A DNA stretch of 64,000 nt from Candidatus Moraniibacteriota bacterium (GCA_030645735.1 JAUSNP010000006.1:196095-260094), one strand, 5' to 3'; shown: positions 7,641 through 48,618, counted from the first letter of the stretch. Numbers and translations are program-made. The notes: a model not told the origin generated them from the sequence alone.

Positions 7641-9893
7641 TTACATTTTTTTATAAATTTTATAATAAATAATTTTAAATAAATTAAACATTGCTTTTCT
7701 AAAAGTAGTTCTGATTTTTTTAGGAATATGATTTTTATTTCTAAACACCGTGGATACAGGAAGATGAGAACAAATATACAATTCCCACTTTAAATACTCC
7801 CTGCTAAATCCTGATTCAATTGTATTATCGTTGCATATTAACCCCGTGGTTGTATTCTTTTTTAATTGTTGCAAAATCAATTCAGAGCTTTTATCAAGAT
7901 GATGATTTGACATTACTTCACCATAAATACTAATCATTTTTTTCACATAAATATCTTTGGAATAATTCTCCTTCGCAAACTCTAAGGATTTTTTACCTCG
8001 CTCAATAATTTCTTTAGGATTATCAATCAATTTTTGCAACTCTTCTGCAAAATATTTTTCACTAACCGCTAAACCACAACCTGGTGAATTAACAACCTCG
8101 GGTAATGCCGAGCCATCACTTTCTAGTGCCAACACCATCTTGCCACAACTCATAGCCTCAATTGCCATCATGCCAAATGTTTCCTGCCTAGAAGGCATTA
8201 GGAATATGTCACAAGCCTGATATAGTCTTGCCAACAATTTATCATCTTTAATCCAGCCATATTCGATGATATTAAATTTATCCTCAAATCCTTTTAACAA
8301 CCCTTTTTGTCCAACAGTAATTAATGTGATTGTTTTCAAATTTTTTAGTCGCGCTAGGGCGTGCTTTATTATATCTAGACCCTTGTACGAGCCAGCATCA
8401 GCTCTAAACATAATAGTAATTGATTTTTCCTGGATGTTAAATTTTGCTTTTGCTAATTTAATATCTACAGCATCAAACAATTTTTGATTAACACCAAATG
8501 GCAGTAAATAAGCCTTTTTTCCTTGCCAAATTGGTGATTGTTCAACTTTATTTTTCATCCAATTTGATGCTACGACAGCCGTAATTTGTGAATTTTGAAT
8601 AGCCTGCTTTTTTAATTCAAAATTTAATGCACTAATATCCTTATCAAGTACAAATGGCTCATTGATATATGAACAGTCCTTGCAATGAACTTGCCATTTT
8701 TTACAATCAAAATGGTGCACGCAATGGCCACCCAAAAAAAATGGATCATGCAATGATAAAATAGTAGGTTTTAATTTAGTCATAATCGGCAAATAATTCA
8801 AGTCTATAATGTTGTGAATTAGATGCAGATGCACAATATCCGATTCAAAAAATATTCTCTCTTGTATCAAGCCCTTTGTAGCGTCTTTAGTATTGAAATC
8901 ATAAGCATATGTGTTGAAATCATCAGACTCTTTAAATAAAACTAACTGTTTAGAATCTATTGCGTTTTTACGTAAATCCAGATGTAAATCATAGCCATTG
9001 AACTTATTTCCGATTAAATCATAGGAAGAAATTTGTAAATTTTTCACTATTTTTTTCTCTATATATTCTAGGGCTATACTATATTCTGCACACTGAAAGA
9101 AATCACGCATATCATGATAAAAAGTCAACTTATCTGAAGCAAGTAATTTTATATCTTCATCAGTTAAATTATTTATTACTGAGATAAATAACGCGCTGTA
9201 TTCCTCATTACCACGACTCTTACTCCGGATTCCTTGCCTCTTTGAAGAATCGCGAGCCGTAACCAACACTTCAGATATTAATTTGTGAGGAAATTTTAAA
9301 AAGGCTCTATAGAAAAATTCAAAATCTTGAGCAACCAACTGACTTTCATCAAACAAGCCAACCGTATCAAAACACACCTTGGGTATTAGCAACGTGCAAC
9401 CATGAGTTTGATTATAAATAACTGGATGAATATTTGATTTTAATCTTGGAGGATATTTGTCTATATGTTTTGCGTAATCAGTCTGATATATTTTTTTATA
9501 TTTTTCATTTATACCATCAAGATCAGACATTATGATAGTGTCTCTATTTTCCAGCTTACTCAACTCATCAACTTGCCGTGCAATCTTAGTTGGATAATAC
9601 ATATCATCGTGGCTTAACCATGAAAAATAGCTACCCTTCATATTTTTTATCCCAACATTCAATGCTGTCGTAGTTCCACCATTTTCTTTTGAAAAATATC
9701 GCACCTTATCCCCATATGATTTAACTATCTCTTCAGTATTGTCTTTCGAACCATCATTAACAACTATAATTTCAATATTTTTATATGTTTGGGCAAGCGC
9801 ACTGTCAATAGCCTCTCTCACATAGTTTGAACCATTATACACTGGTATAACTATTGATATTAAGGGATTGAAATTAATTGTTACCATAATCAT
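7641..9893 (-). CDS. bifunctional glycosyltransferase, N-terminal GT2 + C-terminal GT4 domains
   Basis: N-term ISIVIPVYNGSNYVREAIDSALAQTY..VVNDGSKDNT (GT2); C-term ...QETFGMMAIEAMSCGKMVLALESDGSALPEVV (GT4 EX7E). Confidence 0.8.
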   Translation of the reverse strand: MIMVTINFNPLISIVIPVYNGSNYVREAIDSALAQTYKNIEIIVVNDGSKDNTEEIVKSYGDKVRYFSKENGGTTTALNVGIKNMKGSYFSWLSHDDMYYPTKIARQVDELSKLENRDTIIMSDLDGINEKYKKIYQTDYAKHIDKYPPRLKSNIHPVIYNQTHGCTLLIPKVCFDTVGLFDESQLVAQDFEFFYRAFLKFPHKLISEVLVTARDSSKRQGIRSKSRGNEEYSALFISVINNLTDEDIKLLASDKLTFYHDMRDFFQCAEYSIALEYIEKKIVKNLQISSYDLIGNKFNGYDLHLDLRKNAIDSKQLVLFKESDDFNTYAYDFNTKDATKGLIQERIFFESDIVHLHLIHNIIDLNYLPIMTKLKPTILSLHDPFFLGGHCVHHFDCKKWQVHCKDCSYINEPFVLDKDISALNFELKKQAIQNSQITAVVASNWMKNKVEQSPIWQGKKAYLLPFGVNQKLFDAVDIKLAKAKFNIQEKSITIMFRADAGSYKGLDIIKHALARLKNLKTITLITVGQKGLLKGFEDKFNIIEYGWIKDDKLLARLYQACDIFLMPSRQETFGMMAIEAMSCGKMVLALESDGSALPEVVNSPGCGLAVSEKYFAEELQKLIDNPKEIIERGKKSLEFAKENYSKDIYVKKMISIYGEVMSNHHLDKSSELILQQLKKNTTTGLICNDNTIESGFSREYLKWELYICSHLPVSTVFRNKNHIPKKIRTTFRKAMFNLFKIIYYKIYKKM

Positions 9894-9908
9894 TGTGTTA
9901 CAAATTAT

Positions 9909-11009
9909 CTACAATAAGGTAGTTTTGTTTATCTTTTTAATCCAAAAGCCATTTGAACCCCAGAATGCCACATTTTTTCCATGGAAAAATAATTCTTTGT
10001 GTAAATCACTATAATTTCTGCTGATGTGTGCATTAGGCAATATAATTTCGAAATCCTTATTGCACGATAAAAAAGCTTGCAAAAGGTAACTCTCAGTCCA
10101 AAACATTCTAAAGGTTGGCGTTGTAAACAACGCCTTGCAATACTCGCGAGGTAAATCTATATCATGAAAATGAATAATCACTCCCTTATTTAAAATAGGT
10201 AATACTTCGAGTATTTCAAAATTAACATCACTTCCTGCCTTACAGACATGCGAAGAATCAATAAATAAGATATCATTTTCTTTAAGTCCAAGGAAAAACT
10301 CTGGATTAAGTAGCTCTACTGGTTGTTTTAGTACCGTAGTGCAATTAGGGTATCCATCTAAATCTACCAAAGAATATGGATCTACAATTGTGTAATTTTC
10401 ACATTTAAATCCATCCTTTTCATTTAATTTTACTGCCTCGCGAATAATCTTCGAGGAATTACCAGAGCCAATCTCAATTATTCTTCTGGGTTTATTTTCC
10501 CTTATCATAGAATGCAAAGCAGAAGCACATCCATAAGAAAAGCACCTATTATTTAAATAAAATTCCCTAGGATCGCTAGTTGGATCCTCACTCCACCTAC
10601 ACTCATCTGCCCATTTTGCAAGTTCTTTTAAATTATTTAAAAAAACATTATCATCGAACTTAATTCCGCTTAGCGCACTCACCTTGTCCCAAGCTTTTCT
10701 TTTTTCAAGTTCTTTTATATCTGGTATTGGTTGGTAAAAATGTACTGGTACAAGTAAAAAATTATTTTCTAAACATTTATCTGAATTATCTCCGGTAGTT
10801 GCCCAATCTTTTATCACCTCAATAATATCACCTATCTGTTCCTCATTTAATACCATTTTTTTTTCAACTTCTATACTTTGTTTATCTTTTTTTTGATTTA
10901 CCATTTGATTAAGAGCACTCGTAGAACTCTCTACCAATTTTGCTACATTTGAAGATAATTTCCCTAATCTGTTAAAGCCCTTTTTTTTAAAAAAATTAGT
11001 TATATGCAT
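9909..11009 (-). CDS. putative class I SAM-dependent methyltransferase (glycan-modifying)
   Basis: RRIIEIGSGNSS glycine-rich SAM-binding motif I; acidic motif II region; ~110-aa N-terminal extension. Confidence 0.5.
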   Translation of the reverse strand: MHITNFFKKKGFNRLGKLSSNVAKLVESSTSALNQMVNQKKDKQSIEVEKKMVLNEEQIGDIIEVIKDWATTGDNSDKCLENNFLLVPVHFYQPIPDIKELEKRKAWDKVSALSGIKFDDNVFLNNLKELAKWADECRWSEDPTSDPREFYLNNRCFSYGCASALHSMIRENKPRRIIEIGSGNSSKIIREAVKLNEKDGFKCENYTIVDPYSLVDLDGYPNCTTVLKQPVELLNPEFFLGLKENDILFIDSSHVCKAGSDVNFEILEVLPILNKGVIIHFHDIDLPREYCKALFTTPTFRMFWTESYLLQAFLSCNKDFEIILPNAHISRNYSDLHKELFFHGKNVAFWGSNGFWIKKINKTTLL

Positions 11010-18630: not shown

Positions 18631-18666
18631 TCTGTAGGGGTTCTGTAGGGGTTTCCCTCCTACAGA
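18631..18666. repeat. REP palindromic element copy 1 (partial half-copy + full imperfect copy)
   Basis: tCTGTAGGGG + tCTGTAGGGGTTTCCctCCTACAGa immediately 3' of the RAYT stop codon. Confidence 0.8.
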
Positions 18667-19305
18667 TCACTCTTCCAGCAAATATCTTCTCATCTCACTT
18701 CTGCGTTGATTTATTTCTTTCGCGTTTATATCAACAAATTCACTATAATCACTCCTGTCTTTAAATTGACTTAAAATAATTTCTGAATTACATAATTTTT
18801 CAACACTATCATCCAAGTAGTTTTTCAAACTTGATCTAAATTCTCTTGAATTATGAATAATATTGTTGCCATTAACATAAGCTGACAGGTACAATAAATA
18901 TTCATTGCTATTTACATGCACAGCCTTGAATCTTCCTTGAAATAATGAACCACTTCTTTTGTTCCTGTGATTAAAATATCCTGTATAGCCACCGCTAATG
19001 CGTTTCATAAATTCAGATATACCGCCATCTCTCAACTGTTTTAATATGAAATGAAAATGATTTGGAAGTAAATTATAGGCAATTATCTCAACCAATGCAT
19101 CATTCTGTAGGGGTTTCACCCCTACAGAGTTTGTTTTACTTTTTATATATAAACTAATGACTGGCTCAATTTGATTAAATTCTCTTATTGATTTAAGAAA
19201 TCTTGAATAATCATATTTGTCCAAAAAAATATCTCGCTTCTCCACTCCGCGATTAAATATATGATAATATTCTCCATTTACAAACTCAAAAGAAAAATTT
19301 CCCAT
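18667..19305 (-). CDS. IS200/IS605-family Y1 (HuH) transposase, REP-associated tyrosine transposase (RAYT)-like, carrying an in-frame REP insertion
   Basis: N-term EYYHIFNRGVEKRDIF (YHV..RG..IF motif), HuH motif NHFHFIL, Tyr-containing helix YLLYLSAYVNGN; residues SVGVKPLQ are encoded by REP copy 2. Confidence 0.7.
   Translation of the reverse strand: MGNFSFEFVNGEYYHIFNRGVEKRDIFLDKYDYSRFLKSIREFNQIEPVISLYIKSKTNSVGVKPLQNDALVEIIAYNLLPNHFHFILKQLRDGGISEFMKRISGGYTGYFNHRNKRSGSLFQGRFKAVHVNSNEYLLYLSAYVNGNNIIHNSREFRSSLKNYLDDSVEKLCNSEIILSQFKDRSDYSEFVDINAKEINQRRSEMRRYLLEE
19105..19127. repeat. REP palindromic element copy 2 (inside RAYT ORF, in frame)
   Basis: CTGTAGGGGTTTCACCCCTACAG perfect 9-bp arms, 5-nt loop. 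Confidence 0.85.
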
Positions 19306-19327
19306 CTTTTTTGTTTTATTTTTATAT

Positions 19328-19349
19328 CTGTAGGGGTGAAACCCCTACG
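19328..19349. repeat. REP palindromic element copy 3 (degenerate right arm)
   Basis: CTGTAGGGGTGAAACCCCTACg followed by ttaCCCacac. Confidence 0.75.
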
Positions 19350-19372
19350 TTACCCACACATTATTATTTTTT

Positions 19373-19786
19373 TTAAAAACTCGTGAAAATTATAAATACC
19401 AGCCAAGCAAAAAGCAATGTCAAAACCAATAGCCCAACCAACCATATGATTAGAAAAAGAAACGCTGTTCTATTTAGCCAGATATGCTCTTTTAGAAATT
19501 TTGGCTTGTAATTTTTAAATCCCTTCCACAATCCCCCTGCAATGAAAATTGTATCTATTACAGGCCAAACAATGAGTATTATAAATCTAACAATACTATT
19601 GCGGGAAAAGTTAGTAGTTGAAGTCAACAACACAGATGCAACTAGAATATTAAATGCTATTGAACCCCACATAATCAAAGCCAACTTTCGCATGAAAACA
19701 AAAAGCAAAGCATTGGATATTGCGAACAAAACAAGCGCCAAAATCATAATATTGACCGTAAACTGATCCGGCCCTATATCACTCAT
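19373..19786 (-). CDS. small polytopic membrane protein (4 TM), hypothetical
   Basis: 137 aa, four hydrophobic segments; second gene downstream of the LCAT-like lipase gene on the same strand. Confidence 0.4.
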   Translation of the reverse strand: MSDIGPDQFTVNIMILALVLFAISNALLFVFMRKLALIMWGSIAFNILVASVLLTSTTNFSRNSIVRFIILIVWPVIDTIFIAGGLWKGFKNYKPKFLKEHIWLNRTAFLFLIIWLVGLLVLTLLFAWLVFIIFTSF

Positions 19787-19847
19787 ATTTTTACACTTAA
19801 TAATTAAACAAGTTAATCAAGCCTTATTTACTTTTTATTTCCTATAT

Positions 19848-19883
19848 CCGTAGGGGTTTCACCCCTACATTACCCCTACATTA
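19848..19883. repeat. REP palindromic element copy 4 (with duplicated right arm)
   Basis: CcGTAGGGGTTTCACCCCTACAttaCCCCTACAtta. Confidence 0.8.
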
Positions 19884-20291
19884 TTTCTTACTTTTATAAA
19901 CCGACATGATTTTGACTAGGGAGGTTACGATGAAGACGGCGTAGAAAATGCCAATTATCAGCATGTTGAAACTGCTGGATATAGCACCGCTGATGCCCAT
20001 GCCACCACTTCGGCCTTGAGAGTTGATCAAGAAAGTGACCAGCATAATCACCGGCACAAACCAGCGGGCAAATCTCCACCAAGCCTGAAAAACTTCGTCA
20101 CGCATTTTGTAGGTGATGAGAGAGAGGAGAAAAACAAACGGAAGAGGAGAAAAAGGATATACAATAAAACCAAAAGTTTCCTTACAAATACCCCGATATG
20201 CTCCGCAAAAATTATATAGAAGCGCGAGCAATAAAAACACAAATGCTCCCCCTGCTATCCCACTTATCCATAATACACTTTTTTTGCTCAT
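19881..20291 (-). CDS. small polytopic membrane protein (4 TM), hypothetical
   Basis: 136 aa, four hydrophobic segments; immediately downstream (18 nt) of the LCAT-like lipase gene. Confidence 0.4.
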   Translation of the reverse strand: MSKKSVLWISGIAGGAFVFLLLALLYNFCGAYRGICKETFGFIVYPFSPLPFVFLLSLITYKMRDEVFQAWWRFARWFVPVIMLVTFLINSQGRSGGMGISGAISSSFNMLIIGIFYAVFIVTSLVKIMSVYKSKK

Positions 20292-20308
20292 ATTTTTTAA
20301 TAAAAGAA

Positions 20309-23300
20309 TTAATACTTAATTTCGACTATGCCTTGTTTGGTTGTTAGCTCAGGAACAATCAACCCTACCAACTTCTGTTTGATTGCTCGCCTATCAGCAT
20401 CATCGTCATCATCCCTGTCATCATGCAATTCTTGCGGTCTAGTCATAATCATTGTGACATTTTGCTTTGGTCGATAGTGTGATTCGATGGCACTAGAAGA
20501 TGTGCGCAGATTAGTGGCGAACATCGAATATGTCGCGCCCTTTCTATTTAAGCTCCAGTTGTACTTTGCCATTGTATCATGAAGCTTGGTCACCACGCCA
20601 TTATAGCTAATTGAATTTAGCTCAACAGCCACCCTGCGATCATGGCTTACGAATTTTTCTGTATATTTGAGAATTGTGACATTTCCTGCTTGATCAGTGA
20701 TTGTGGCTGTGGTCATTTTGCCAACATATCTCTCATTTTCTCTTTCTCTGTCGCTATACTTTGAATTCTTTTTGGATATTGCGGAGGTGACATAAGTCAC
20801 TGTGGTTGGATTTTCGTCAATGCCTTCAACTCTCATTGAATTGGTCTGAGTGTCAAAAAATATTCTGGCTTCTGGCGGGGTTTGATCTGCTGTGGGTTGC
20901 ATGACTGTTTCGCCGACTTTCGGTTGCAAAGAAAAATCAATGACGCTGTTTCCATCAAAGTCCACTGCCAATGGTGAGGCATTTTGAATTGTCCCATCAA
21001 TCACTTCCATAGTAACCTTGGCCTTGTCAGAAGAAGGAACTCCGGCAAAAGTTGTTTTGGCCACCACCGCGTCATTTTCCACCTCTTGCATCTCCAAGGT
21101 AAATGAACCTTCGGCCAAGCCGTCCAGCGTCACTGTGTGCGCCACAGAGGCTGACAAAGAGATGAATTGCACTTCGCCAAAGCGTTTGTATATTGCCCCA
21201 GGAATGGTCGAAACTGAAGCACTGATTTCATTGCCAGAGGTGTCATGAGCTGACAGTGCCAAAGGTGAATGCAAGATATAATGCAAACGCTTTTCGGAAC
21301 TATTTGATGGTTTTGAATCTGAAATAAATTGAGGAAAAGATGTTGATGATTGAGTTAAAATATTATCTTTAATAAAACTTCGTAATTCTGAAACTTCTAG
21401 AATATCCGCATGCTCTATGCTTCTGACAACGGGAATATTATAATCATCCAAATCTACCCAATACCTCTTCACATTTTCATTTGCACTCATCGCCAACGCA
21501 CTTGGCGCCACCACTGTACCATCGCCATCAATCACTGTGTCCGGAGTATATTGAATCTTGTCCCGATATGCGAGACATTTGCCTTCAAACACCTCCGAAC
21601 ATTCGATGCCTGTCCAATATTTGATTGTTCCAAGCGTCTCTTCGCCAAAACCAGCGATTTGATAAACAGAAATTGATGCTGGCACTGTCCAATTGTCATC
21701 TAGTGCTTGATGCACATCTTCAGCATTACCTAACAGTTTTGCATTGATTGAACTTGGACTGACAACATCATTTGAATCAGCTGAAACTTTTCTTTCAGAA
21801 TCCAAAAGGAAATCATGCAATTCAGTTGGGTTGTCGATTTCATTGCCATATTTATTGATGAAAGATTGCGTAAGTGATCCATTTTCAAATGAAATCATTG
21901 GTGTGCTCGTTGAACTGCCATTTCCATTGAAATATGCGCTTGATGGCAAAAGATTGTATGCGCTTGGCATGTTATTAGCTAATGTTCGAGCAACTTTTGG
22001 AGCAAGCAGCAAGGGAAACCAATCTGCAGGCAAGCCTTGATCATAGCCATGCAAGATTCCACCAATTGCTTGTGGCGTTCCGACTTGTGGCACGGCCACC
22101 ATAACAATCTTGTCAATCAGACTCTCAGCCTCTGCTCCCAATTTGTTGGTCAACGCTTTTGCCAACAGCCCACCATTGGAATGCGCTACGATGGTCACTT
22201 TGCCAGTTTTGGAAGTTTCCGCCAATCGTCTCAACTCACGCACAATGTATGGCGAGATTGACGCTTGGGTATAAGAAATATTTTTCCCATCAAATGTTCC
22301 AGAAGTCAAAATATCTTCCAGTGACAATCGCCAATCATATGGCATAGCCACATAATCATTGATAATTTTGTCATCATTTTTCCATTTTTCCAAATCAGCC
22401 TTAAATGAATTGTAAATATTTTTTTGCCCAATGAGTGGCGATACATTCACCTCATCCAAAACATCTCTTGTATAAACATCTGGATCTAGACTTTTGCCGT
22501 TTTTATCTAGAAATAATTTTTCCACATCCGCATCGCGATTAGGTTCCCAAAGTTGATTCTCTGTTCCAATCACTCCATCAGTATACAACCGACTCGCCTC
22601 CAATCCTGGCAAGAAAAGGACGTTGGATGCGCCACTGGCTGTTACTGATGGCACAGAATTTTCAATTTCTGTGGCGCTCCAACTTTCTGAAGTATAGTCG
22701 CCAATTAGTTTTTCTCCGCCTACATTTGGCGCGGATTCAATTTCAGGTCCGGCTGGATCGCCGTACCAATTGCTTTTCAAAAGAACTTTGGTTTTGTCAT
22801 GAAAGCTCGGGTCACTGCCTGCGACATTGGTGCAATATCCACCACAAATCGGACCATAGATTCCATAGTCATCTGGATAATTCAGCTTGCACTCATTGAA
22901 ACAGTTTTCAAAAAGTGCATTATATACATCTGGCTTTGTGACTTTGGCTGTGACAGCCGTGTCTTGAGAATTGTTTTGGAAATTGGAGTTTTCTATGAAC
23001 AAATAACTTTGTGAATTCCATTCGCCATATTCCGTCTCAACTTTTATATCCGCATAGGCATTGTTTTTGAAATCACAGTTGCTCATTTTCACTCGGCCTG
23101 AATAGAGGGTCATAGCTGGAGCAGCCTCATTCACAGGCGCCGCGTAGGCTACTGGAAAAAACATATCCTTGAGGCCGTTATTCATTCCCAAGCCAGGACA
23201 GCTGTCCGTGTCATAGGAAAATTCATCACCCATCTGAGAAAATTCGACAAATTCAAAAATAGATTCTGGATCGTCCACATAATCCCCTGGGGCGCTGAAT

Positions 23301-23686
23301 TCAATCGTGGCGGTTGGCGACATAAAACAACGCGGATTATATGCTCCGCCCTCTTCAAAAGTCAGTGGGATTCCAGCCAATTTGATTTTTTCTTCTTTGG
23401 TGCCTTGAGCAATGACATTTCCACTGATGGACAAGTGACGAAAAGCTAATTGCGTTCCTTTTTCAATAGTCAAAGTCACGCCCCAATTGACATAAATGTT
23501 TCCATAGTTAGATAAATCCGTACTATTGTTCCAAGTGGTGTTTTCACTGATATACAAATCTTCCAATGGCAAAACTTCGCCAGCTACAATATTTTTCGAC
23601 AAAGCCATGAGATCAATCCGCAAAGGACTGATGGCAAAGATAACGATAAAAATTATGACACCCATGTTTTTGATTGTCTTGTGCAT
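20309..23686 (-). CDS. large secreted multidomain protein with LCAT/PGAP1-like alpha/beta-hydrolase (lipase/acyltransferase) domain
   Basis: N-terminal signal/anchor MGVIIFIVIFAISPL; central PYDWRLS motif (LCAT-family hallmark) followed by lipase nucleophile elbow VTIVAHSNGG (A-H-S-x-G as in Bacillus LipA); N-terminal region with beta-helix-like NxxN repeats; acidic DDRDDDDDADRR near C-terminus. Confidence 0.6.
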   Translation of the reverse strand: MHKTIKNMGVIIFIVIFAISPLRIDLMALSKNIVAGEVLPLEDLYISENTTWNNSTDLSNYGNIYVNWGVTLTIEKGTQLAFRHLSISGNVIAQGTKEEKIKLAGIPLTFEEGGAYNPRCFMSPTATIEFSAPGDYVDDPESIFEFVEFSQMGDEFSYDTDSCPGLGMNNGLKDMFFPVAYAAPVNEAAPAMTLYSGRVKMSNCDFKNNAYADIKVETEYGEWNSQSYLFIENSNFQNNSQDTAVTAKVTKPDVYNALFENCFNECKLNYPDDYGIYGPICGGYCTNVAGSDPSFHDKTKVLLKSNWYGDPAGPEIESAPNVGGEKLIGDYTSESWSATEIENSVPSVTASGASNVLFLPGLEASRLYTDGVIGTENQLWEPNRDADVEKLFLDKNGKSLDPDVYTRDVLDEVNVSPLIGQKNIYNSFKADLEKWKNDDKIINDYVAMPYDWRLSLEDILTSGTFDGKNISYTQASISPYIVRELRRLAETSKTGKVTIVAHSNGGLLAKALTNKLGAEAESLIDKIVMVAVPQVGTPQAIGGILHGYDQGLPADWFPLLLAPKVARTLANNMPSAYNLLPSSAYFNGNGSSTSTPMISFENGSLTQSFINKYGNEIDNPTELHDFLLDSERKVSADSNDVVSPSSINAKLLGNAEDVHQALDDNWTVPASISVYQIAGFGEETLGTIKYWTGIECSEVFEGKCLAYRDKIQYTPDTVIDGDGTVVAPSALAMSANENVKRYWVDLDDYNIPVVRSIEHADILEVSELRSFIKDNILTQSSTSFPQFISDSKPSNSSEKRLHYILHSPLALSAHDTSGNEISASVSTIPGAIYKRFGEVQFISLSASVAHTVTLDGLAEGSFTLEMQEVENDAVVAKTTFAGVPSSDKAKVTMEVIDGTIQNASPLAVDFDGNSVIDFSLQPKVGETVMQPTADQTPPEARIFFDTQTNSMRVEGIDENPTTVTYVTSAISKKNSKYSDRERENERYVGKMTTATITDQAGNVTILKYTEKFVSHDRRVAVELNSISYNGVVTKLHDTMAKYNWSLNRKGATYSMFATNLRTSSSAIESHYRPKQNVTMIMTRPQELHDDRDDDDDADRRAIKQKLVGLIVPELTTKQGIVEIKY

Positions 23687-23846
23687 GTTTTTGTTTGTTT
23701 TTTATTTTTTTAGATATTAAAAAACCACGGAGTTACCCGCGGTCGATTGGCATAAAAATATCGCACAACACAAAAGCTCTCAGATATCCTGAAAAATTTC
23801 TAGCGACTATCACAGTGCGTCTTGTATTTTTGTTTTTCACACCTAA

Positions 23847-23875
23847 ATTATACTAGATGCTCATTATTTTGACAA
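23847..23875 (-). promoter_or_regulatory. sigma70-type promoter for the LCAT-like gene (minus strand: TTGTCA-17nt-TATAAT) embedded in palindrome TTGACAaggTGTCAA
   Basis: plus-strand attata 23847-23852 (= TATAAT on minus), 17-nt spacer, tgacaa 23870-23875 (= TTGTCA); palindromic 15-mer 23869-23883. Confidence 0.5.
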
Positions 23876-23924
23876 GGTGTCAAGAATTCATCATGACCCA
23901 AAGTTATCCACAGCCCATCTGATT

Positions 23925-23947
23925 CTGTAGGGGTGAAACCCCTACAG
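23925..23947. repeat. REP palindromic element copy 5
   Basis: CTGTAGGGGTGAAACCCCTACAG perfect, immediately 3' of the wzm stop. Confidence 0.85.
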
Positions 23948-36139: not shown

Positions 36140-36694
36140 TTAGTTGGCTTTGAGCCAGCGACGCAGAGCCATGACCGCCTCGCGCTCGACGCCGTCACGG
36201 ACAGTGTCGTAAAGCTCAAGCCATTCGTCGGCCTTGAGTTTTTTGAACTTCTCGGTGTCCGCGACGCTGATAGTCACGGCCGATGGTTCCTCGACCCTGT
36301 CGGGCGTGGCCTCAATCACGCCCACGATCATATGCCCGTCTGGTAGGGCATCGTTTTCCGTCGTCCGACGACGACTGCTCATCACTGGCTTATTGCTGGC
36401 GTCAAAAGCGAAATTAACCACGCCACACACCAGCTCGCCACCAAACGGGAGCTTGAATCCACACACTTTCCAGGCGCCATACGGAGGCCGCGATTCAATC
36501 GCGCAATTATAGAAAGGCGACAAAAATTTTGTGTCCTCAAGCCTGGGCCCAACCTGGAGTGCCCAATTCTTTGGTCCAAGGTCAATTTTTACCACCTTAC
36601 CTCCCTGGGCAAACCATGCAAGAAAGCCTTCAGGATCCCCAAACTCTACTGGCTGTTGCTTGACTCCTGTCATAATAATCCTCCCTTCCTCCAC
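36140..36694 (-). CDS. hypothetical cytoplasmic protein (184 aa), GC-rich (>55% vs ~35% background)
   Basis: Long ORF with strong Shine-Dalgarno GGAGGAAGGGAGG 5 nt before ATG (unusual here); no recognisable motifs. Confidence 0.5.
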   Translation of the reverse strand: MEEGRIIMTGVKQQPVEFGDPEGFLAWFAQGGKVVKIDLGPKNWALQVGPRLEDTKFLSPFYNCAIESRPPYGAWKVCGFKLPFGGELVCGVVNFAFDASNKPVMSSRRRTTENDALPDGHMIVGVIEATPDRVEEPSAVTISVADTEKFKKLKADEWLELYDTVRDGVEREAVMALRRWLKAN

Positions 36695-42850: not shown

Positions 42851-43396
42851 TTAAAACGGTGAATTAAAATCTCTAAAAAACTGTTGCTTCTGATCTTTTT
42901 CTGACAAAATCGGATTTTCAATCGGCCAATAGATTTTCAAATCGGGATCGTTCCAGGCAATTCCACTATCTTGCGTGGGCGCATAAAAATTGTCGCATTT
43001 ATATTGAAATTCAGTATAGTCTTCCAAAGTACAATAACCATGCGCAAACCCGCGTGGGACAAACAGCATCCAAAAGTTTTTAGCCGTCAACTCAAAAGCT
43101 TCCCACTTGCCATAGGTTTCTGAATCTTTGCGCAGATCAACTATCACATCATAAACCGCGCCTTTAGTCACCCGCACCAACTTAGCTTGCGCCGCGTCTC
43201 CCAATTGAAAATGCAAGCCACGCAACACACCCTTGGTGACTGACATGGCATGATTATCTTGCACGAAATCCGCTTCAATTCCAGCGGCCTTGAAATCCTT
43301 TTCGGAATAAGTCTCCATGAAAAAGCCTCGTTCATCTTGAAAAACTCTGGGCTTGATTATGTAAGCACCTTTGAGCGTTGTTTCTATGATTTCCAT
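42851..43396 (-). CDS. rfbC: dTDP-4-dehydrorhamnose 3,5-epimerase
   Basis: cupin RmlC motifs: RGFFMETY, GVLRGLHFQ, AQAKLVRVTKGAVYDVIVDLR. Confidence 0.9.
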   Translation of the reverse strand: MEIIETTLKGAYIIKPRVFQDERGFFMETYSEKDFKAAGIEADFVQDNHAMSVTKGVLRGLHFQLGDAAQAKLVRVTKGAVYDVIVDLRKDSETYGKWEAFELTAKNFWMLFVPRGFAHGYCTLEDYTEFQYKCDNFYAPTQDSGIAWNDPDLKIYWPIENPILSEKDQKQQFFRDFNSPF

Positions 43397-43585: not shown

Positions 43586-44572
43586 TTATTTAAAAATTCC
43601 TCCACTCAAAAGCTTGTTCAATCTTTCCTTGACCTCCTCTGGAGTGGCTTCATGAGTGGTGTCTTTGGCTACCGCGTCAGAAACAATCATTTCGGCTGAT
43701 TCAGTTTTTTCAACTGGTTGCGCAGGTGTCGCGCTGAAAGAAAAATCTTCTTCGGCGATTGGCAAATTGGCTGGCGCAGCGGCTTTCTTTTCACCGCCAA
43801 TCAACTCATTCATTTTCGGAGCCACCAAAGCAGCTTCTTCTTCAATATTGAAATCTAGAGTTTTTTTATCTCCAAAAGCTTGTCCAAAATCCGGAAAAGA
43901 AAACTTTGGAAACGAGAATGATTTTTTTTCATCTTCCATTTCTCTAGGTTGTTCTACAAATTCTTCAACCATCAAATCTTCCCCATCTGAATTTTTTGCA
44001 AACAAAGTTAGTAAAAATTGAAATAACAATCCCACCAACAACCCCAACACCAAACTGATCATTGCAACTTTTGCAACTGAATCTTTTTTTGTAACTGCGG
44101 AAACGATTGGGCCATCGATCTTTTTCATGCCCAAATCCTCCATCGTATAATATTTACCCATCACAAAAATCAAGTCCGCTGCTGTTTGTTTGTTTACAAT
44201 TTCAGCTTGCAATTGAACATCATTGAAAGTCTTGACTCGCACCACTCCACTTCGACGAATTTGTTCCACTGAAACCATTGCGTTCCAAGCAGACTTTCTT
44301 TGGGCATCTGCCAATTGTGATGCTGAGTCTTCAATGTCAGAATTTTTTTCCAACAGCTTATCATAGAAAGACAACGACATCGGAATCTGCTTAGCATTGC
44401 CAATGATCTGGTCAATATTGCGCGCTGTCCAGTCATTCTTTGGCAACAGCAAGATGTCCGTTTCCACTTGAAAAGTCTTGTTTGTTCCCATCGCAACCAC
44501 AAAAAACACCACTGCCACTACCACGGTAGCGAGCCAAAAAGTCACTGCTTTGAATGTTTGTCGCATGTCCAT
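43586..44572 (-). CDS. bitopic membrane protein with two TM helices flanking a ~180-aa extracytoplasmic domain and acidic C-terminal tail; possible Wzz-like chain-length regulator
   Basis: TM1 TFWLATVVVAVVFFVVAM, TM2 VAMISLVLGLLVGLLFQFLLTLF; start MDMRQ chosen because the upstream in-frame extension contains REP copy 6. Confidence 0.35.
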   Translation of the reverse strand: MDMRQTFKAVTFWLATVVVAVVFFVVAMGTNKTFQVETDILLLPKNDWTARNIDQIIGNAKQIPMSLSFYDKLLEKNSDIEDSASQLADAQRKSAWNAMVSVEQIRRSGVVRVKTFNDVQLQAEIVNKQTAADLIFVMGKYYTMEDLGMKKIDGPIVSAVTKKDSVAKVAMISLVLGLLVGLLFQFLLTLFAKNSDGEDLMVEEFVEQPREMEDEKKSFSFPKFSFPDFGQAFGDKKTLDFNIEEEAALVAPKMNELIGGEKKAAAPANLPIAEEDFSFSATPAQPVEKTESAEMIVSDAVAKDTTHEATPEEVKERLNKLLSGGIFK

Positions 44573-44659: not shown

Positions 44660-44682
44660 CTGTAGGGGTTTCACCCCTACAG
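44660..44682. repeat. REP palindromic element copy 6
   Basis: CTGTAGGGGTTTCACCCCTACAG perfect. Confidence 0.85.
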
Positions 44683-44775: not shown

Positions 44776-45309
44776 TTAGTGTTTGTGGAATGGCTTCCAC
44801 CCCATGACGGTTGCCAAGCCGATATAGACGAACCCTACCAGCACCAGCAAGGCTAGCCACCCCAGCCAGACAATGCTACTGGATGCGTTATTCTTGGCCT
44901 CGGAAGCATTGGCCTTGGCCTCAGTGACTCCCGTATTGAGAGTCGCATCTTCAGCCCTGAGCTCATCCAAGGCGCTATCGGTGGCCGCGCGATAATCTTC
45001 ATCACTCTTGATGTGATTCGCGAGACCATCCTCGACGCCTTTGACTCGTGTGTCGAGCTTCGCAACTCCCTCGTCGGTAGCCGCCTGCTTTTTGGCAAGG
45101 GCGGACAAATCTTTCTGCAACTTCGAAATTTTGTGACTCTCCTCCCGTTTGAAAGACTTCATTTCATCTGCTGTCGCCCAATAACCCTCGGCGACTCCAG
45201 ACGATTTGACTGCCACTTCACCGGCAGTTGTGAAAGCCTGCGCCATAATCGGCACAAACAACGTTGCCAATATTGCCCACACTACCATTATTTGTTTCAT
45301 GTGCTTCAC
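44776..45309 (-). CDS. secreted coiled-coil protein with C-terminal TM anchor, Ala-rich, hypothetical
   Basis: Signal peptide MKHMKQIMVVWAILATLFVPIMAQA; heptad-rich middle; C-terminal IVWLGWLALLVLVGFVYIGLATVMGW. Confidence 0.45.
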   Translation of the reverse strand: MKHMKQIMVVWAILATLFVPIMAQAFTTAGEVAVKSSGVAEGYWATADEMKSFKREESHKISKLQKDLSALAKKQAATDEGVAKLDTRVKGVEDGLANHIKSDEDYRAATDSALDELRAEDATLNTGVTEAKANASEAKNNASSSIVWLGWLALLVLVGFVYIGLATVMGWKPFHKH

Positions 45310-45354
45310 CTCTGAAAAATTTTTGGAACGGGCTTCGCGTGAAGCCCGTCCTGG

Positions 45355-46749
45355 TTACGGGTTGAATTCGGTTGGGACTTTCCTTCCGTCCTCGATGCGC
45401 TTTCTGACCACAAAGTCATTCAACGCATTTTGGCCATGCAGAACATAGGTCACTCCCGCCCAAGTCATATATCCGTCAGCCATAAGCTTGTCGGCCTCTA
45501 CTTGATGCTTGGAGATGTCCCATCCCAACTGATGATTGCTCTCTGCGATCTGATAATCATTTTCTGCCAGACGCAGATATTTCACGTCACGCGTACAAGC
45601 ATACAGCTCGATATAATCATGCGCACGCTCCAACCGCTTAGTCATGTTGTAGAAAGACCAGCGATCACAACCATCAATCTCGTCTGAGTGCTTTTTGAGC
45701 AACTCATTGAACTTGGTAATTGTTTCGTTGGAGCATTTTGAACACGGTGGTTCCGCAATCTTCGCAGGCGGCGGAACAGCGGGTGTGGTTGTCGCAAGTG
45801 CCGGCTCACTCTTGCAAGTGACATTGACATTAATCGTCCTTTCCTCAGAACGAGTGTCAGCCAGCGGCGTGGATGTAACCGGCTTTTCATCGGCCAGCGG
45901 TTTTTTCTCAGCCTTCACAGGCGGAGATGTGACCAGAAACGCTGCATACTCGTCACTGAGACAAACCGCCTCAGCTTCCCAGTATCTCTCATTTCGCACT
46001 CGATTATTTCCGAGTTGACCGCCAACTGCGGCTGCTGTTCCTGTTTTAGAACCAACCTCCGAGGCCGCTGCTGACAATCCTAATGAGTTACCATAAGTAG
46101 CCGTCTCATGCTGGCGTCCACCACGGATTGCATAATACTGAAATCCGAGATTCACGCAAGCGTCCTCAATAGACGCCTCAACCCGAGCCTGCGGAGCTCT
46201 GGTGTCGCCCGCCAATGTCATGCTAGCAGTACTCCACTTTTCATCCTTTGGCCAAGGCAGGCACTGCACCTCTTTGACCTCACGATCAATCGGTTCGGAA
46301 ATTTCCGTGATGTCCAAAGACTTTCGCCCCTTGAACAAGTCATGAAAAAATCCCGTACCCCCTTTGGCGCGCCTAATCTTCTCGACTGAAACTGGCTCGG
46401 AGCTCGGGCAATATTCTGCCCATTCTCCACTCTCGGGAGCTGTTCCTGGAATAATCCCAGTCACAAACCCCGGCGCCGCAAGAAACTGGCGCGGAGTATT
46501 GACATGTTGCCCACCGCCATTAACAGCAATGTCGCCAATGGTCGCATCGGCGTCGCCGCCAGTGCCGATAGCCAAGCTTTCGGCGTCGCCACCGGTTGCG
46601 GTGTTGTTGTTGGTATTGGTACTGGTATTGTCCAGACCAATACCGATGTTGTTTCCGCTTCCCGATACATCGCCGACATCGCCGGCGAATACATTAGCAG
46701 AGAACAACAACGCCATAGCCATCACTACAAAAATCTGCATCCTTTTCAT
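45355..46749 (-). CDS. secreted hypothetical protein (464 aa) with Thr/Asn/Gly-rich N-terminal module paralogous to the LPXTG protein
   Basis: Signal peptide MKRMQIFVVMAMALLFSANVFA; shared module NTSTNTNNNTATGGDAESLAIGTGGDADATIGDIAVNGGG; strong RBS AGGAGA. Confidence 0.5.
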   Translation of the reverse strand: MKRMQIFVVMAMALLFSANVFAGDVGDVSGSGNNIGIGLDNTSTNTNNNTATGGDAESLAIGTGGDADATIGDIAVNGGGQHVNTPRQFLAAPGFVTGIIPGTAPESGEWAEYCPSSEPVSVEKIRRAKGGTGFFHDLFKGRKSLDITEISEPIDREVKEVQCLPWPKDEKWSTASMTLAGDTRAPQARVEASIEDACVNLGFQYYAIRGGRQHETATYGNSLGLSAAASEVGSKTGTAAAVGGQLGNNRVRNERYWEAEAVCLSDEYAAFLVTSPPVKAEKKPLADEKPVTSTPLADTRSEERTINVNVTCKSEPALATTTPAVPPPAKIAEPPCSKCSNETITKFNELLKKHSDEIDGCDRWSFYNMTKRLERAHDYIELYACTRDVKYLRLAENDYQIAESNHQLGWDISKHQVEADKLMADGYMTWAGVTYVLHGQNALNDFVVRKRIEDGRKVPTEFNP

Positions 46750-46964
46750 GGTGTCTCTCCTGAAATCTTATTGGCACGATTGCGCGAACACACCCCTACG
46801 GCGGTCCATCAGCAATCGGCGAATTCTTCACTACAATATATATCATCCGAATTCATAACTGAGTATTCGGTTGTCAAGGGACATAAAAATCTATAATTTC
46901 ACAGCGTCCGTCAAAAAACGACCGACACTGAATCGAACATAGATAGAACTTTAAGGAACCTCGT

Positions 46965-46993
46965 ATTCTAGCAAAAATTTTGGTTTTTGTCAA
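46965..46993 (-). promoter_or_regulatory. sigma70-type promoter (minus strand TTGACA-17nt-TAGAAT with TGc extended -10) for the 464-aa secreted protein gene; GGCTCAAAttGGCTCAAA direct repeat immediately upstream of -35
   Basis: plus-strand attcta 46965-46970 and tgtcaa 46988-46993; repeats at 46997-47020. Confidence 0.5.
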
Positions 46994-47037
46994 TGGCTAG
47001 GCTGTTTTGAGCCAATTTGAGCCTCCGAATGGCTATG

Positions 47038-47160
47038 CTTAATAAAATCACTGTCATTGCGAATGAGTTCCGCCGCAGAACGACTGTGTGGCAATCTCAA
47101 GTTTCAGTGCATAGAACAAAGGGATTGCCACACTCCTTTCAGTCGCTCGCAATGACAAAT
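47038..47160 (-). terminator. long compound hairpin + U-tract, probable terminator of the sortase operon
   Basis: outer stem GTCATTGCGA/TCGCAATGAC (47055-64/47148-57), inner stem GTGTGGCAATC/GATTGCCACAC; minus-strand downstream GAUUUUAUU. Confidence 0.45.
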
Positions 47161-47165
47161 AAATG

Positions 47166-48062
47166 TTATTTCATCAACTCTGCTTTCACGATGAGTCTTT
47201 TGAAGTTTGTGCCCAACGGCCAACAAGTGGAAAGTGTCAAAGATGAATTCTGTGTCTCAGCAAAAATTCGCTCATCGTCTGGCACGGTCACAAATTTGTC
47301 GCCCACCGCATAACGATTCACAATTATTTTGCCATTTTTTTGCATAGATCTAACAATGATTGTATCGCCTTGTTCCAAATCATTTAGATTTTTGAAGATG
47401 TGATTGAAGTTTCCCTTGGCCCAAATATAATTGCTAGAATGGCCAGAAATGACCGCGTTGCCATTTTGTCCTGGAGCGGCCGTCTTGAAGAAATGACTCA
47501 CGCCATTTTCCAATTCCGACAACATATTCTTTTCATCATTGCTCAATGACCAAACCATTGGCGCCTCCACACCGATTTTTTCAATTTGAATGTTTACCAT
47601 CGGTTTGGAATCTCCAGGTGCGTCTGGATCATAGCCATTGGCAATTTCCTGTTTGTCAGAAAAACCATCTTTGTCAGTGTCGACATTGTTCGGATCCGTG
47701 CCGTGCGTATATTCCAAATAGTTCGCTAGGCCGTCGCCATCCGCATCAGCGTCATAGATGTTGGCGCCGGTTAGATTGTTGGCTCTGGCCCAATCGACAA
47801 ACCCAATCGAACCAACTTCAGTTGAGCCAATTCTTTTTTGCAATTCATCATCAGTTTGAGTCTTTTGAATCGACCCTGTGATCTGAGTTGTTTTTCCAGT
47901 CAAGAAAGAAAAATCCAAATTAACCAGATAGAATGCCCCCATGAATACAGCCAAAGAAAGGCTGGCGATAAGCGCAGCCCTCTTGGAATACTGTTTGATT
48001 TTAACCAGTATTTTGCTCATTTTATATAAATGAAACGATTTATTATTTTGTGCGAGTTGCAA
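47166..48062 (-). CDS. sortase (transpeptidase) with N-terminal TM anchor and thrombospondin type-3-like Ca-binding repeats
   Basis: Sortase His region AVISGHSSNY and TLxTC motif SSLTLSTCWP; TSP3-like DADADGDGLANYLEYTHGTDPNNVDTDKDGFSDKQE. Confidence 0.75.
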   Translation of the reverse strand: MQLAQNNKSFHLYKMSKILVKIKQYSKRAALIASLSLAVFMGAFYLVNLDFSFLTGKTTQITGSIQKTQTDDELQKRIGSTEVGSIGFVDWARANNLTGANIYDADADGDGLANYLEYTHGTDPNNVDTDKDGFSDKQEIANGYDPDAPGDSKPMVNIQIEKIGVEAPMVWSLSNDEKNMLSELENGVSHFFKTAAPGQNGNAVISGHSSNYIWAKGNFNHIFKNLNDLEQGDTIIVRSMQKNGKIIVNRYAVGDKFVTVPDDERIFAETQNSSLTLSTCWPLGTNFKRLIVKAELMK

Positions 48063-48618
48063 ATTTCTTCACACCTACAACTGTAGCAAACAAAGCTAGG
48101 CCAGCGATTGACGCCAACACAAGACTATCACTTCCAGTAGCTGGCAATCTTTTCTTATATACAACCCTACGCACCTTTTTATCGCGATGATCAATTTTGC
48201 CGTCATGATTAGTATCTTCACGAACAATTTCCACTTCTGTATTTATGCGCGAGTTTGTATTTGAACTACTTGATCCGCCAGTACTAGCTGTCGATGTAAA
48301 GCTTGACCCGCCAGTTGAACTAGCAGATACAGCACCCACTGTAGCAGAGCTAGAACCACCATCAACAGAGATGTCACCGACACTAGCAGTCGCATTGCCA
48401 CCCGTAGCAATTGCCGTGCTAGAAGCACTGCCACCTGTAGCAGTATTTGTGTTGGTATTGGTGCTAGTGTTATCAAGATCAATCTCAATATTATCCGCTG
48501 ACACAAAATTCACCGCGAATGTCATTGCCAACACTGCAAGCACTGCTACGAAGATTAAAGTTTTTTTACTCATACATTTATTTATCCCGTTAAATTGCGC
48601 CTTATAGCGCGTATTCAA
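48043..48618 (-). CDS. LPXTG-type cell-wall-anchored surface protein (sortase substrate)
   Basis: Signal peptide, Thr/Ser/Gly/Ala-rich region, C-terminal RLPATGSDSLVLASIAGLALFATVVGVKKFATRTK (LPXTG + hydrophobic span + basic tail); 20-nt overlap with sortase gene. Confidence 0.75.
   Translation of the reverse strand: MNTRYKAQFNGINKCMSKKTLIFVAVLAVLAMTFAVNFVSADNIEIDLDNTSTNTNTNTATGGSASSTAIATGGNATASVGDISVDGGSSSATVGAVSASSTGGSSFTSTASTGGSSSSNTNSRINTEVEIVREDTNHDGKIDHRDKKVRRVVYKKRLPATGSDSLVLASIAGLALFATVVGVKKFATRTK

Follow-up and report, generated by a model that had tools for sequence, protein, structure and literature searches.

Why should a secreted protein carry, just behind its signal peptide, nearly the same polar segment as a putative wall-anchored protein encoded on the far side of a sortase gene? 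The question is raised by a 64,000-nucleotide (nt) stretch from a Candidatus Moraniibacteriota bacterium (GCA_030645735.1 JAUSNP010000006.1:196095-260094; hereafter the window, along the full 64 kb of which all positions are counted), in which four minus-strand genes encode, in gene order, an LPXTG protein, a sortase with thrombospondin type 3 (TSP3) repeats, a secreted protein of 464 amino acids (aa; P4) and a coiled-coil protein with a membrane anchor (D5). An earlier, sequence-only reading had described these genes as a sortase-dependent surface module, comprising an LPXTG substrate and a sortase-TSP3 fusion together with a coiled-coil anchor protein and a secreted protein whose N-terminal module is shared with the substrate; all four of its open reading frames (ORFs) are present, and that core description holds. 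For both P4 and the sortase, a Candidatus Moranbacteria metagenome-assembled genome encodes a protein that is 100% identical. The genes and the protein segments on which our argument turns are as follows (HMM, hidden Markov model; AF2, AlphaFold2).

48043..48573 (-): small LPXTG stalk protein, 176 aa, from its sequence layout and matches to TIGR01167 and NF053819
48355..48495 (-): N-terminal module of the LPXTG protein, DNIEIDLDNTSTNTNTNTATGGSASSTAIATGGNATASVGDISVDGG, directly after the predicted cleavage site (between VSA and D) and homologous to the P4 module
48043..48147 (-): cell-wall sorting signal of the LPXTG protein (LPATG, hydrophobic segment, positive tail), read from the sequence and from anchor HMM matches
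47166..48020 (-): membrane-anchored sortase with TSP3 repeats, 284 aa, from Pfam Sortase and TSP3_bac matches and a homologue alignment
47625..47759 (-): region of TSP3-type Ca-binding repeats (DADADGDGLANYLEY...DTDKDGFSDKQE...DPDAPGD), from PF18884
45355..46749 (-): P4, secreted protein of 464 aa from an orphan family, from a family alignment and an AF2 model
46513..46653 (-): N-terminal module of P4, NNIGIGLDNTSTNTNNNTATGGDAESLAIGTGGDADATIGDIAVNGG, which matches the LPXTG module
44776..45300 (-): D5, 174 aa from the ATG at 45300, from ORF reading, slot comparison and AF2

At their N-termini, the LPXTG protein and P4 align with 54% identity over 80 aa (BLASTP, E=9e-12), and a 47-aa module core, found at only two places in the window, is 70% identical between them (E=5e-19). 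The sequence-only reading had called these modules paralogous and similar at the DNA level; the homology is confirmed, and DNA similarity is confined to the core, which alone aligns and differs mostly at third codon positions (a general repeat search on the DNA missed the repeat, which is visible in a directed alignment only). Each module, which we also call a tag, is a polar segment of ~45 aa with a start that alternates hydrophobic and polar residues, an N-rich turn, and ATGGxA or Q-rich repeats. We fetched 80 loci through the sortase, 67 of which are Moranbacteria-type (individual loci carry L numbers below), and compared the ~70 residues past the signal peptides of the LPXTG protein and P4 by Smith-Waterman alignment in 32 genomes, the set used for all module statistics. 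The LPXTG module scored best against the P4 module of its own genome in 18/32 cases by row and 22/32 by column, and the own-genome mean score was 99.3, compared with 53.8±3.2 under permutation (10,000 permutations, maximum 69). When composition was controlled for, 27 of the 32 own pairs scored above all 200 composition-preserving shuffles (median z 9.7). Module types vary among genomes (ATGGxA repeats, SQSQ/QEQ-rich runs, FSGTQTVTANP, DNDVNVGESSASATVGEITNTN), each being mirrored in both proteins; L024 carries a further matched type, and where a locus has two LPXTG genes the genome's module is found on both.

Codons are identical at 249 of the 678 identical residues, against 251 expected from codon usage (12 observed and 11.2 expected for the pair in the window), and mean GC content at third codon positions (GC3) differs between the two genes, at 0.35 for LPXTG genes and 0.49 for P4. 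The similarity is therefore kept at the protein level and does not reflect recent gene conversion, which appears unlikely on these figures; protein-level constraint on the matched tags is, as far as sequence comparison can tell, strongly supported.

Pairs of loci with nearly the same sortase reveal how the tags change. Between L003 and L004, HtrA (encoded upstream of the LPXTG gene) is 93% identical and the sortase 92%, against 40% for the mature part of the LPXTG protein, 20-32% for P4 by segment and 31% for D5; the corresponding values for L009 and L012 are 97%, 94%, 23%, 24-40% and 19%. Across these two pairs and L009/L010, the sortases are 91-94% identical (HtrA 93-97% in the two measurable pairs), and module scores are 104-171 within genomes and 30-57 between them. 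Aligned by blastn, L003 and L004 have flanks 82-84% identical. Similarity breaks exactly at the mature part of the LPXTG gene (6553-6783) and again over 8183-10256, a stretch that begins just past the signal peptide of P4 and closes where D5 ends; it is kept in the sortase, in the intergenic promoter region, at the C-terminal end of the LPXTG protein and in each of the signal peptides. L009 and L012 show the same break pattern. A joint change of type in the two tags, with a conserved sortase left in place between them, is well supported, and across genomes sortase identity is a poor guide to P4 identity (Spearman 0.10).

The remainder of P4 also changes piecemeal. Its middle and C-terminal domains are respectively 28% and 87% identical in L010/L012, 31% and 93% in L015/L021, and 61% and 20% in L005/L032, such that P4 reads in these alignments as a mosaic protein. 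L010/L012 and L015/L021 retain the same tag type despite middle domains that are only 28-31% identical; the tag therefore tracks the LPXTG partner and not the body of P4. We also considered donor-strand insertion of the tag into the P4 middle domain and judge it less likely, since tag and middle-domain types assort independently, which favours pairing of module with module.

The protein encoded between the two tagged genes has an N-terminal transmembrane (TM) anchor, predicted TSP3 Ca-binding repeats, and a catalytic domain with the His of SGHSS, the Cys of TLSTCWP and the Arg of a KR pair. It matches PF04203 (Sortase; 1.1e-22, 80.5 bits against a cut-off of 26.6) and TIGR01076 (45 against 39.35), and H194, C266 and R275 are invariant in a 21-sequence family alignment, bearing out the proposal that the TLxTC and His motifs align to the sortase triad. 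PF18884 (TSP3_bac) matches the same protein in two stretches (1.1e-9, 38.3 bits against a cut-off of 25), the Asp and Gly columns of this region (DxDxDG) being likewise invariant. The proposed fusion is thus present in one protein, but it is not the oddity that it had been taken for: among the 360 homologues found, the 120 listed are 53-66% identical, full-length, mostly ~283 aa and mostly equipped with both Pfam domains, so that the fusion is the norm in this lineage; in relatives from Saccharibacteria and Doudnabacteria the match is confined to the catalytic domain. The closest PDB sequences are 4d70 and 2ln7, which we take to be the class D enzymes SrtD of C. perfringens and SrtD of B. anthracis (the search tool lists the sortase/LPXTG-site transpeptidase family). 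Class assignment by HMM, suggested as a check by the sequence-only reading, yielded no class, as every class-specific NCBIfam model scored far below its cut-off: the class D models NF033746 and NF058671 reached 62.7 against 165 and 66.8 against 140, and those for classes C, E, F and GN were all far under theirs. In a sister group (L046-L058), long-form sortases (330-346 aa) follow another upstream gene, encoding a 540-680-aa protein with the start ...FGSDGxMYAPNCHCxADV... and a hydrophobic C-terminal end, which suggests a different dedicated sortase substrate.

The LPXTG protein consists of a signal peptide, the N-terminal module, an S/T/G-rich low-complexity spacer, an EF-hand-like loop and a sorting signal. 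Its signal peptide is predicted, from the sequence, as MSKKTLIFVAVLAVLAMTFAVNFVSA with cleavage before D, and its C-terminus has the three parts of a sorting signal (KRLPATGSDSLVLASIAGLALFATVVGVKKFATRTK), with KRLPATGS followed by a hydrophobic stretch and KKFATRTK. The ending described earlier (RLPATGS, hydrophobic segment, KKFATRTK) is therefore there to be read, with anchor HMMs responding marginally (TIGR01167 16.0 against a cut-off of 15.9; Pfam Gram_pos_anchor 17.1, under its cut-off of 20; NF053819 2e-6). Homologous LPXTG genes adjoin the sortase on its upstream side in related loci. That the window encodes a bona fide sortase next to a bona fide LPXTG substrate is strongly supported by these motif and family matches, and it is well supported that the substrate is built like a stalk, with a wall-sorting C-terminus, a low-complexity middle rich in S/T/G/Q and an N-terminal module at the tip. 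The EF-hand-like loop (DTNHDGKIDHRD; aa ~125-142; 48148-48200, minus strand) lies directly before KKRLPATG, and LPXTG proteins of relatives have D/N/H/K-rich stretches in its place; together with the TSP3 repeats of the sortase, the loop hints at Ca-dependent substrate handling.

P4 was correctly described as a 464-aa secreted protein, and its N-terminus is signal-like. Behind the signal peptide and the module come an alpha/beta middle domain (aa ~84-290), a Pro-rich linker (~291-340) and a C-terminal domain (341-449), with a conserved motif, R.FL.AP.G, marking the boundary after the variable tag throughout the family. The middle domain contains a long Gly-rich beta-hairpin with the family motif GxSxGxG...GGxxG, and the C-terminal domain has five helices, conserved Cys residues and the motif C..C.NN..LR...CTGD..YL..AI..Y..AERNY. 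Word-indexed protein searches with P4, using either the single sequence or a 33-sequence profile, each returned the protein itself and one relative; the family was found instead through tblastn and phmmer on the loci fetched through the sortase and through HMMER, run in full over 1.84 billion representative proteins, which gave 167 relatives at E<=1e-3, nearly all of 380-500 aa. The P4 of the window can be aligned over its entire length with 33 family members derived from the loci and 83 from the database. Neither P4 nor D5 matches Pfam, NCBIfam or PHROG, and P4 found no match in a PDB sequence profile search and nothing usable in BFVD. An AF2 model of P4 built from 84 sequences has a mean predicted local distance difference test score (pLDDT) of 72.9, with >90 in the five-helix C-terminal domain, 80-96 in most of the middle domain and <50 in the tag, the hairpin tip and the linker. 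Foldseek found no PDB match to this model at E<=1e-3, and the long beta-hairpin is the only feature common to its weak top matches (TraT, the anthrax PA pore, CDTb, NetB). P4 is therefore a small orphan family, without an assigned fold in the libraries searched.

It had also been suggested that P4 is a paralogue of the LPXTG protein that lost its sorting signal. This idea was put to the check and rejected, because homology is limited to the N-terminal module and everything beyond it belongs to a separate conserved family. A cryptic sorting motif, hinted at by the ERIPTGF-type tails of some members, was rejected as well: [LIV]Px[TS]G is absent from the last 18 residues in the 32 locus-derived or 84 aligned members inspected, and the P4 of the window ends KVPTEFNP.

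D5 comprises a signal peptide, an AQAFTTAGE motif, a helical, coiled-coil ectodomain and a C-terminal TM anchor, and AF2 predicts it to be all-helical at low confidence. The coiled-coil anchor protein of the sequence-only reading is thus real, with a corrected length: the most likely start is ATG 45300, which gives 174 aa in place of 177. Proteins in the D5 slot, in a short TM-anchored or a long form, are linked to one another in 26/32 loci (blastp single linkage, E<1e-4), and D5 may act as a membrane-side partner. On its 3' side follows p383 (43586-44572, minus strand), conserved in synteny and with a Wzz-like layout of TM segment, ~250-aa extracytoplasmic domain and TM segment (a label given by eye from topology, without an HMM match), and next after it a gene for dTDP-4-dehydrorhamnose 3,5-epimerase (42851-43396); because of these two genes, we regard the surface-protein locus as abutting a surface-polysaccharide cluster.

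The reading that we prefer, and to which we assign a probability of roughly 0.5, is that the tags dock secreted P4 onto the sortase-anchored LPXTG stalk by non-covalent, like-with-like pairing. The sortase would attach the stalk covalently to the cell wall, and P4 would be held at the stalk tip where the two modules pair, through a contact of polar-zipper or cross-beta type that would require near-identical sequences, for which reason both tags would have to change together. The variable middle domain of P4 would then be displayed on the outside of the cell, where it would probably make contact with a host or with a partner cell, with diversifying selection and recombination swapping the exposed parts while selection keeps the two tags matched. 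A bolder version, which we offer only tentatively and think will more probably prove wrong than right, sees in the tags a 'molecular Velcro' dependent on sequence identity, whether as a prion-like polar zipper or as a cross-beta contact, by which a rapidly diversifying effector or adhesin hangs on the stalk, and has the Gly-rich hairpin of P4 perhaps inserting into the envelope of a partner cell; the weak fold likeness of this hairpin is limited to TraT and the stems of pore-forming toxins. Several points weigh against docking. We infer it solely from co-variation in sequence. Matching is not obligatory, since 4-5 of the 32 pairs are unmatched (L014, L033 and L048; weakly L019 and L029). The modules receive a pLDDT of ~40 from AF2, so that no particular mode of pairing is structurally backed. 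They are also of low complexity, which raises alignment scores, although the shuffle and permutation controls were passed nonetheless. Old gene conversion followed by purifying selection would likewise leave saturated synonymous sites, and a common third partner (D5, an enzyme that modifies both proteins, or a wall glycan specific to the strain) could explain the co-variation equally well.

Such a third partner underlies the alternative to which we give most weight, while still thinking it unlikely: the shared module would be a common address or ligand tag through which a strain-variable component binds, processes or glycosylates both proteins, and not a docking surface. The component in question might be D5, some modifying enzyme, or a secondary wall glycan produced by the Wzz-like and rhamnose genes next to the locus. 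The modules are rich in S/T/N and hence apt for glycosylation, p383 and the epimerase gene adjoin the locus, and D5 lies in the same variable cassette, its identity mostly following module similarity. Against this, the matches are position-specific beyond composition, as the shuffles show; pairs that have switched modules keep p383 74-93% and the sortase 91-94% identical, so that neither co-varies with the module; D5 is decoupled in L029/L030, where the LPXTG proteins are 72% identical and D5 15%; and it is not obvious why a protein already anchored covalently should need to bind the wall through a tag at its far end. Less likely again is that the similarity has no function and results from concerted evolution, driven by gene conversion or by recurrent duplication of a leader segment of low complexity. 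The two genes lie on one strand with 1.3 kb between them, repeats of low complexity promote recombination, and there is a slight excess of identical codons in L009 (18 against 12) and L006 (15 against 9.8); yet codon identity overall is at chance and the GC3 values stand far apart, as given above, neither the intervening sortase nor the two signal peptides have been homogenised, and the persistence of similarity in 27/32 deeply diverged genomes implies purifying selection on both copies at the least.

The least probable account, in our estimation, is that of the sequence-only reading, in which a horizontally acquired accessory island holds a coupled LPXTG-sortase pair and a high-GC paralogue minus its sorting signal. 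What speaks for it is composition and one gap in distribution. The downstream genes are indeed high in GC and rich in Ala (P4 0.515 and 10.6%, D5 0.524 and 15.5%, against a GC of 0.396±0.051 for the 48 genes of the window), they are outliers with a promoter of their own, and the P4-D5 pair is absent from one separate subclade (L034, L036-L042, L063, L065), where the sortase is followed directly by a p383-like gene; a clade-specific insertion between sortase and p383 must therefore have occurred at some point in the history of the lineage. Borders at 44.7 and 48.7 kb had been proposed on the understanding that the module was not generally conserved, but P4 homologues lie immediately 3' of the sortase in 34/67 Moranbacteria-type loci, which refutes the island on the condition that the reading itself had set. 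The order HtrA-LPXTG-sortase/TSP3-P4-D5-p383 recurs in L001 and in loci among L002-L066, with the small LPXTG gene upstream of the sortase, HtrA further upstream, a D5-slot gene after P4 and the Wzz-like p383 downstream; even the single relative of P4 from the indexed searches (28% identity) lies on a contig ordered DUF5656-HtrA-LPXTG-sortase/TSP3-P4-D5, followed by a gene for a membrane protein that shows a weak relationship to p383. Synteny in relatives extends to the flanking genes, including the closest loci (L002-L004), in which just the content of the variable segments differs, and we found no patchy presence with joined flanks among close relatives. Across loci, P4 and D5 have a mean GC of 0.49 against a locus mean of 0.42, and their GC3 exceeds that of the sortase in 25/32 and 23/32 loci respectively; with the rise recurring in most loci, there is no evidence for recent acquisition in this genome, and recent horizontal transfer was rejected as the source of the high GC. 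(A third GC outlier in the window, an ORF of 184 aa at 36140-36694 on the minus strand with GC 0.546, GC3 0.605 and no Pfam match, is the only further gene with P4/D5-like composition.) No tRNA was found in the 64-kb window, and hence no tRNA-linked island boundary; a PHROGs search gave no phage link, its sole match being a sortase-like PHROG for the sortase. The remaining elements of that account fare no better, as P4 shares the N-terminal module alone with the LPXTG protein and the genes do not overlap. The 20-nt overlap that had been reported between LPXTG and sortase genes depends on a mechanical TTG start at 48062; the conserved sortase start is ATG 48020 (MSKILVK), 22 nt past the LPXTG stop at 48043, as backed by a 284-aa NCBI protein of the same contig and by the ~120 listed homologues (~283 aa) that align from there, which leaves no ground for translational coupling. 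The LPXTG gene itself most likely starts at ATG 48573 (the mechanical ORF reaches 48618). We conclude that this is a surface-display locus whose gene order is conserved across a Moranbacteria clade and whose content is hypervariable.

Among described systems, the nearest parallel to docking is found in Streptomyces, where short chaplins assemble jointly with the chaplin domains of the long chaplins, which are anchored by sortase; this joint assembly has been proposed as the means by which the secreted component is tethered to the wall (PMC5618241). As with chaplins (long ChpA-C sortase-anchored, short ChpD-H secreted), the anchored and the secreted proteins here share a homologous element; unlike them, the element is a polar N/Q/S/T/G-rich tag and not a hydrophobic amyloid domain, it is hypervariable and genome-specific, the secreted partner is a two-domain protein of 400-500 aa in place of a ~55-aa peptide, and the chaplin domain (DUF320) was not found in Pfam scans of the four proteins (E<=0.1). 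In Bacillus subtilis, TapA anchors TasA fibres, and the locus is similar in that a surface accessory or nucleator protein would position and anchor a secreted subunit of the same operon (PMC5618241). The anchor here is predicted to be covalent through the sortase, and the likeness does not reach polymerisation of P4. CsgB and CsgA of curli provide a further analogy for a surface nucleator that anchors a secreted subunit; neither TasA/camelysin nor curlin domains were found in the same Pfam scans. Cohesin-dockerin pairs of cellulosome scaffoldins also combine a wall-anchored scaffold with non-covalent display through a dedicated tag and co-evolving partner specificity, but Pfam finds no cohesin or dockerin domains here, and the partners carry the same sequence instead of complementary folds. 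Since the defining domains of chaplins, TapA-TasA, curli and cohesin-dockerin are absent, the locus belongs to none of these systems, and its resemblance to chaplins and TapA-TasA would be purely functional. The His-Cys-Arg triad, TLxTC and an adjacent substrate gene with LPATG recall pairs of class D or housekeeping sortases with their substrates; class D models are the best PDB and NCBIfam matches, yet well short of the cut-off quoted above, and the N-terminal half with TSP3 repeats, unlike class D, is a feature of this Moranbacteria/Parcubacteria family. A sortase gene flanked by surface-protein genes in a variable locus is also reminiscent of sortase-assembled Gram-positive pili, but the class C model scores 59 against a cut-off of 160, P4 and D5 lack LPXTG, and pilin domains were not found (Pfam); with neither a class C sortase nor LPXTG on P4 and D5, this is not a pilus operon. 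Our literature search turned up no account of the locus, nor of the P4 family or of fusions between sortase and TSP3 repeats. The locus appears to represent a new form of surface display by sortase, marked by a matched tag that is specific to each genome and by hypervariability that is coordinated, in which we infer function wherever we go past domain identity.

Three further features lie between or beside the four genes.

47051..47156 (-): long imperfect hairpin just past the sortase stop (fold -45.3 kcal/mol, z=-3.7)
46750..46993 (-): promoter-like site and ~215-nt leader of P4, from an 11/12 consensus match and conservation
44660..44682 (strand not assigned): palindromic element resembling repetitive extragenic palindromes (REP), or terminator-like hairpin, 3' of D5, from six window copies against 0 expected and a terminator-like prediction

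The hairpin had been called a terminator, and its folding is confirmed while that role is presumptive. The palindrome (~105 nt) is genome-specific, missing from the same intergenic region of the nearest relatives (L002-L004), no second copy was found in the window, and it may be an inserted element and not a conserved terminator. The sigma70 promoter proposed ahead of P4 is borne out by TTGACA-17-TGcTAGAAT at 46993-46965, which matches 11/12 consensus positions in its boxes (TTGACA, TAGAAT) and includes the TG, and the promoter together with the first ~130 nt of the leader (46994-46837) is 69-73% identical to L002-L004 at the same place; that P4 and D5 form a separate transcription unit under their own conserved promoter region is well supported. 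The conserved part of the leader (46837-46994) contains two promoter-like boxes, TTGACA-17-TAGAAT and TTGACAACCGAATAC...TATATAT, with a short hairpin and T-run between them (CAGTGTCGGTC-GTTTTTT-GACGGACGCTG) that has no Rfam match and could be a small leader or attenuator. Rfam scans of the module region (gathering or E<=1) gave chance matches only, the sole Rfam match in the window being a S-adenosylmethionine (SAM) riboswitch (RF00162, 50 bits, above the gathering score) at 581-706 on the plus strand. The REP copy reported near the left edge of the module is there, at 44660-44682, as one of six copies of CTGTAGGGGTTTCACCCCTACAG in the window (18643-23947 and 44660-44682, four of them clustered at 18.6-19.9 kb); it falls within the mechanical ORF of p383, upstream of the likely true start, as homologues align from ~residue 41-58.

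CPR (candidate phyla radiation)/Patescibacteria are thought to live attached to other cells, and to our knowledge little is known of their surface machinery beyond type IV pili. The locus supplies a conserved sortase with a defined adjacent substrate, and, in neighbourhoods that are near-identical otherwise, P4 stands out as one of the most variable genes, which is what one would expect of a determinant of host contact or one exposed to phage. Were the Velcro-like version of docking to prove true, with strain-specific tags swapped in both genes at once, it would constitute a previously undescribed form of non-covalent display in episymbiotic CPR bacteria. More generally, if the rule of tag matching is true, it would be a new docking principle and would provide a handle with which to predict pairs of secreted proteins and anchors in uncultured bacteria.

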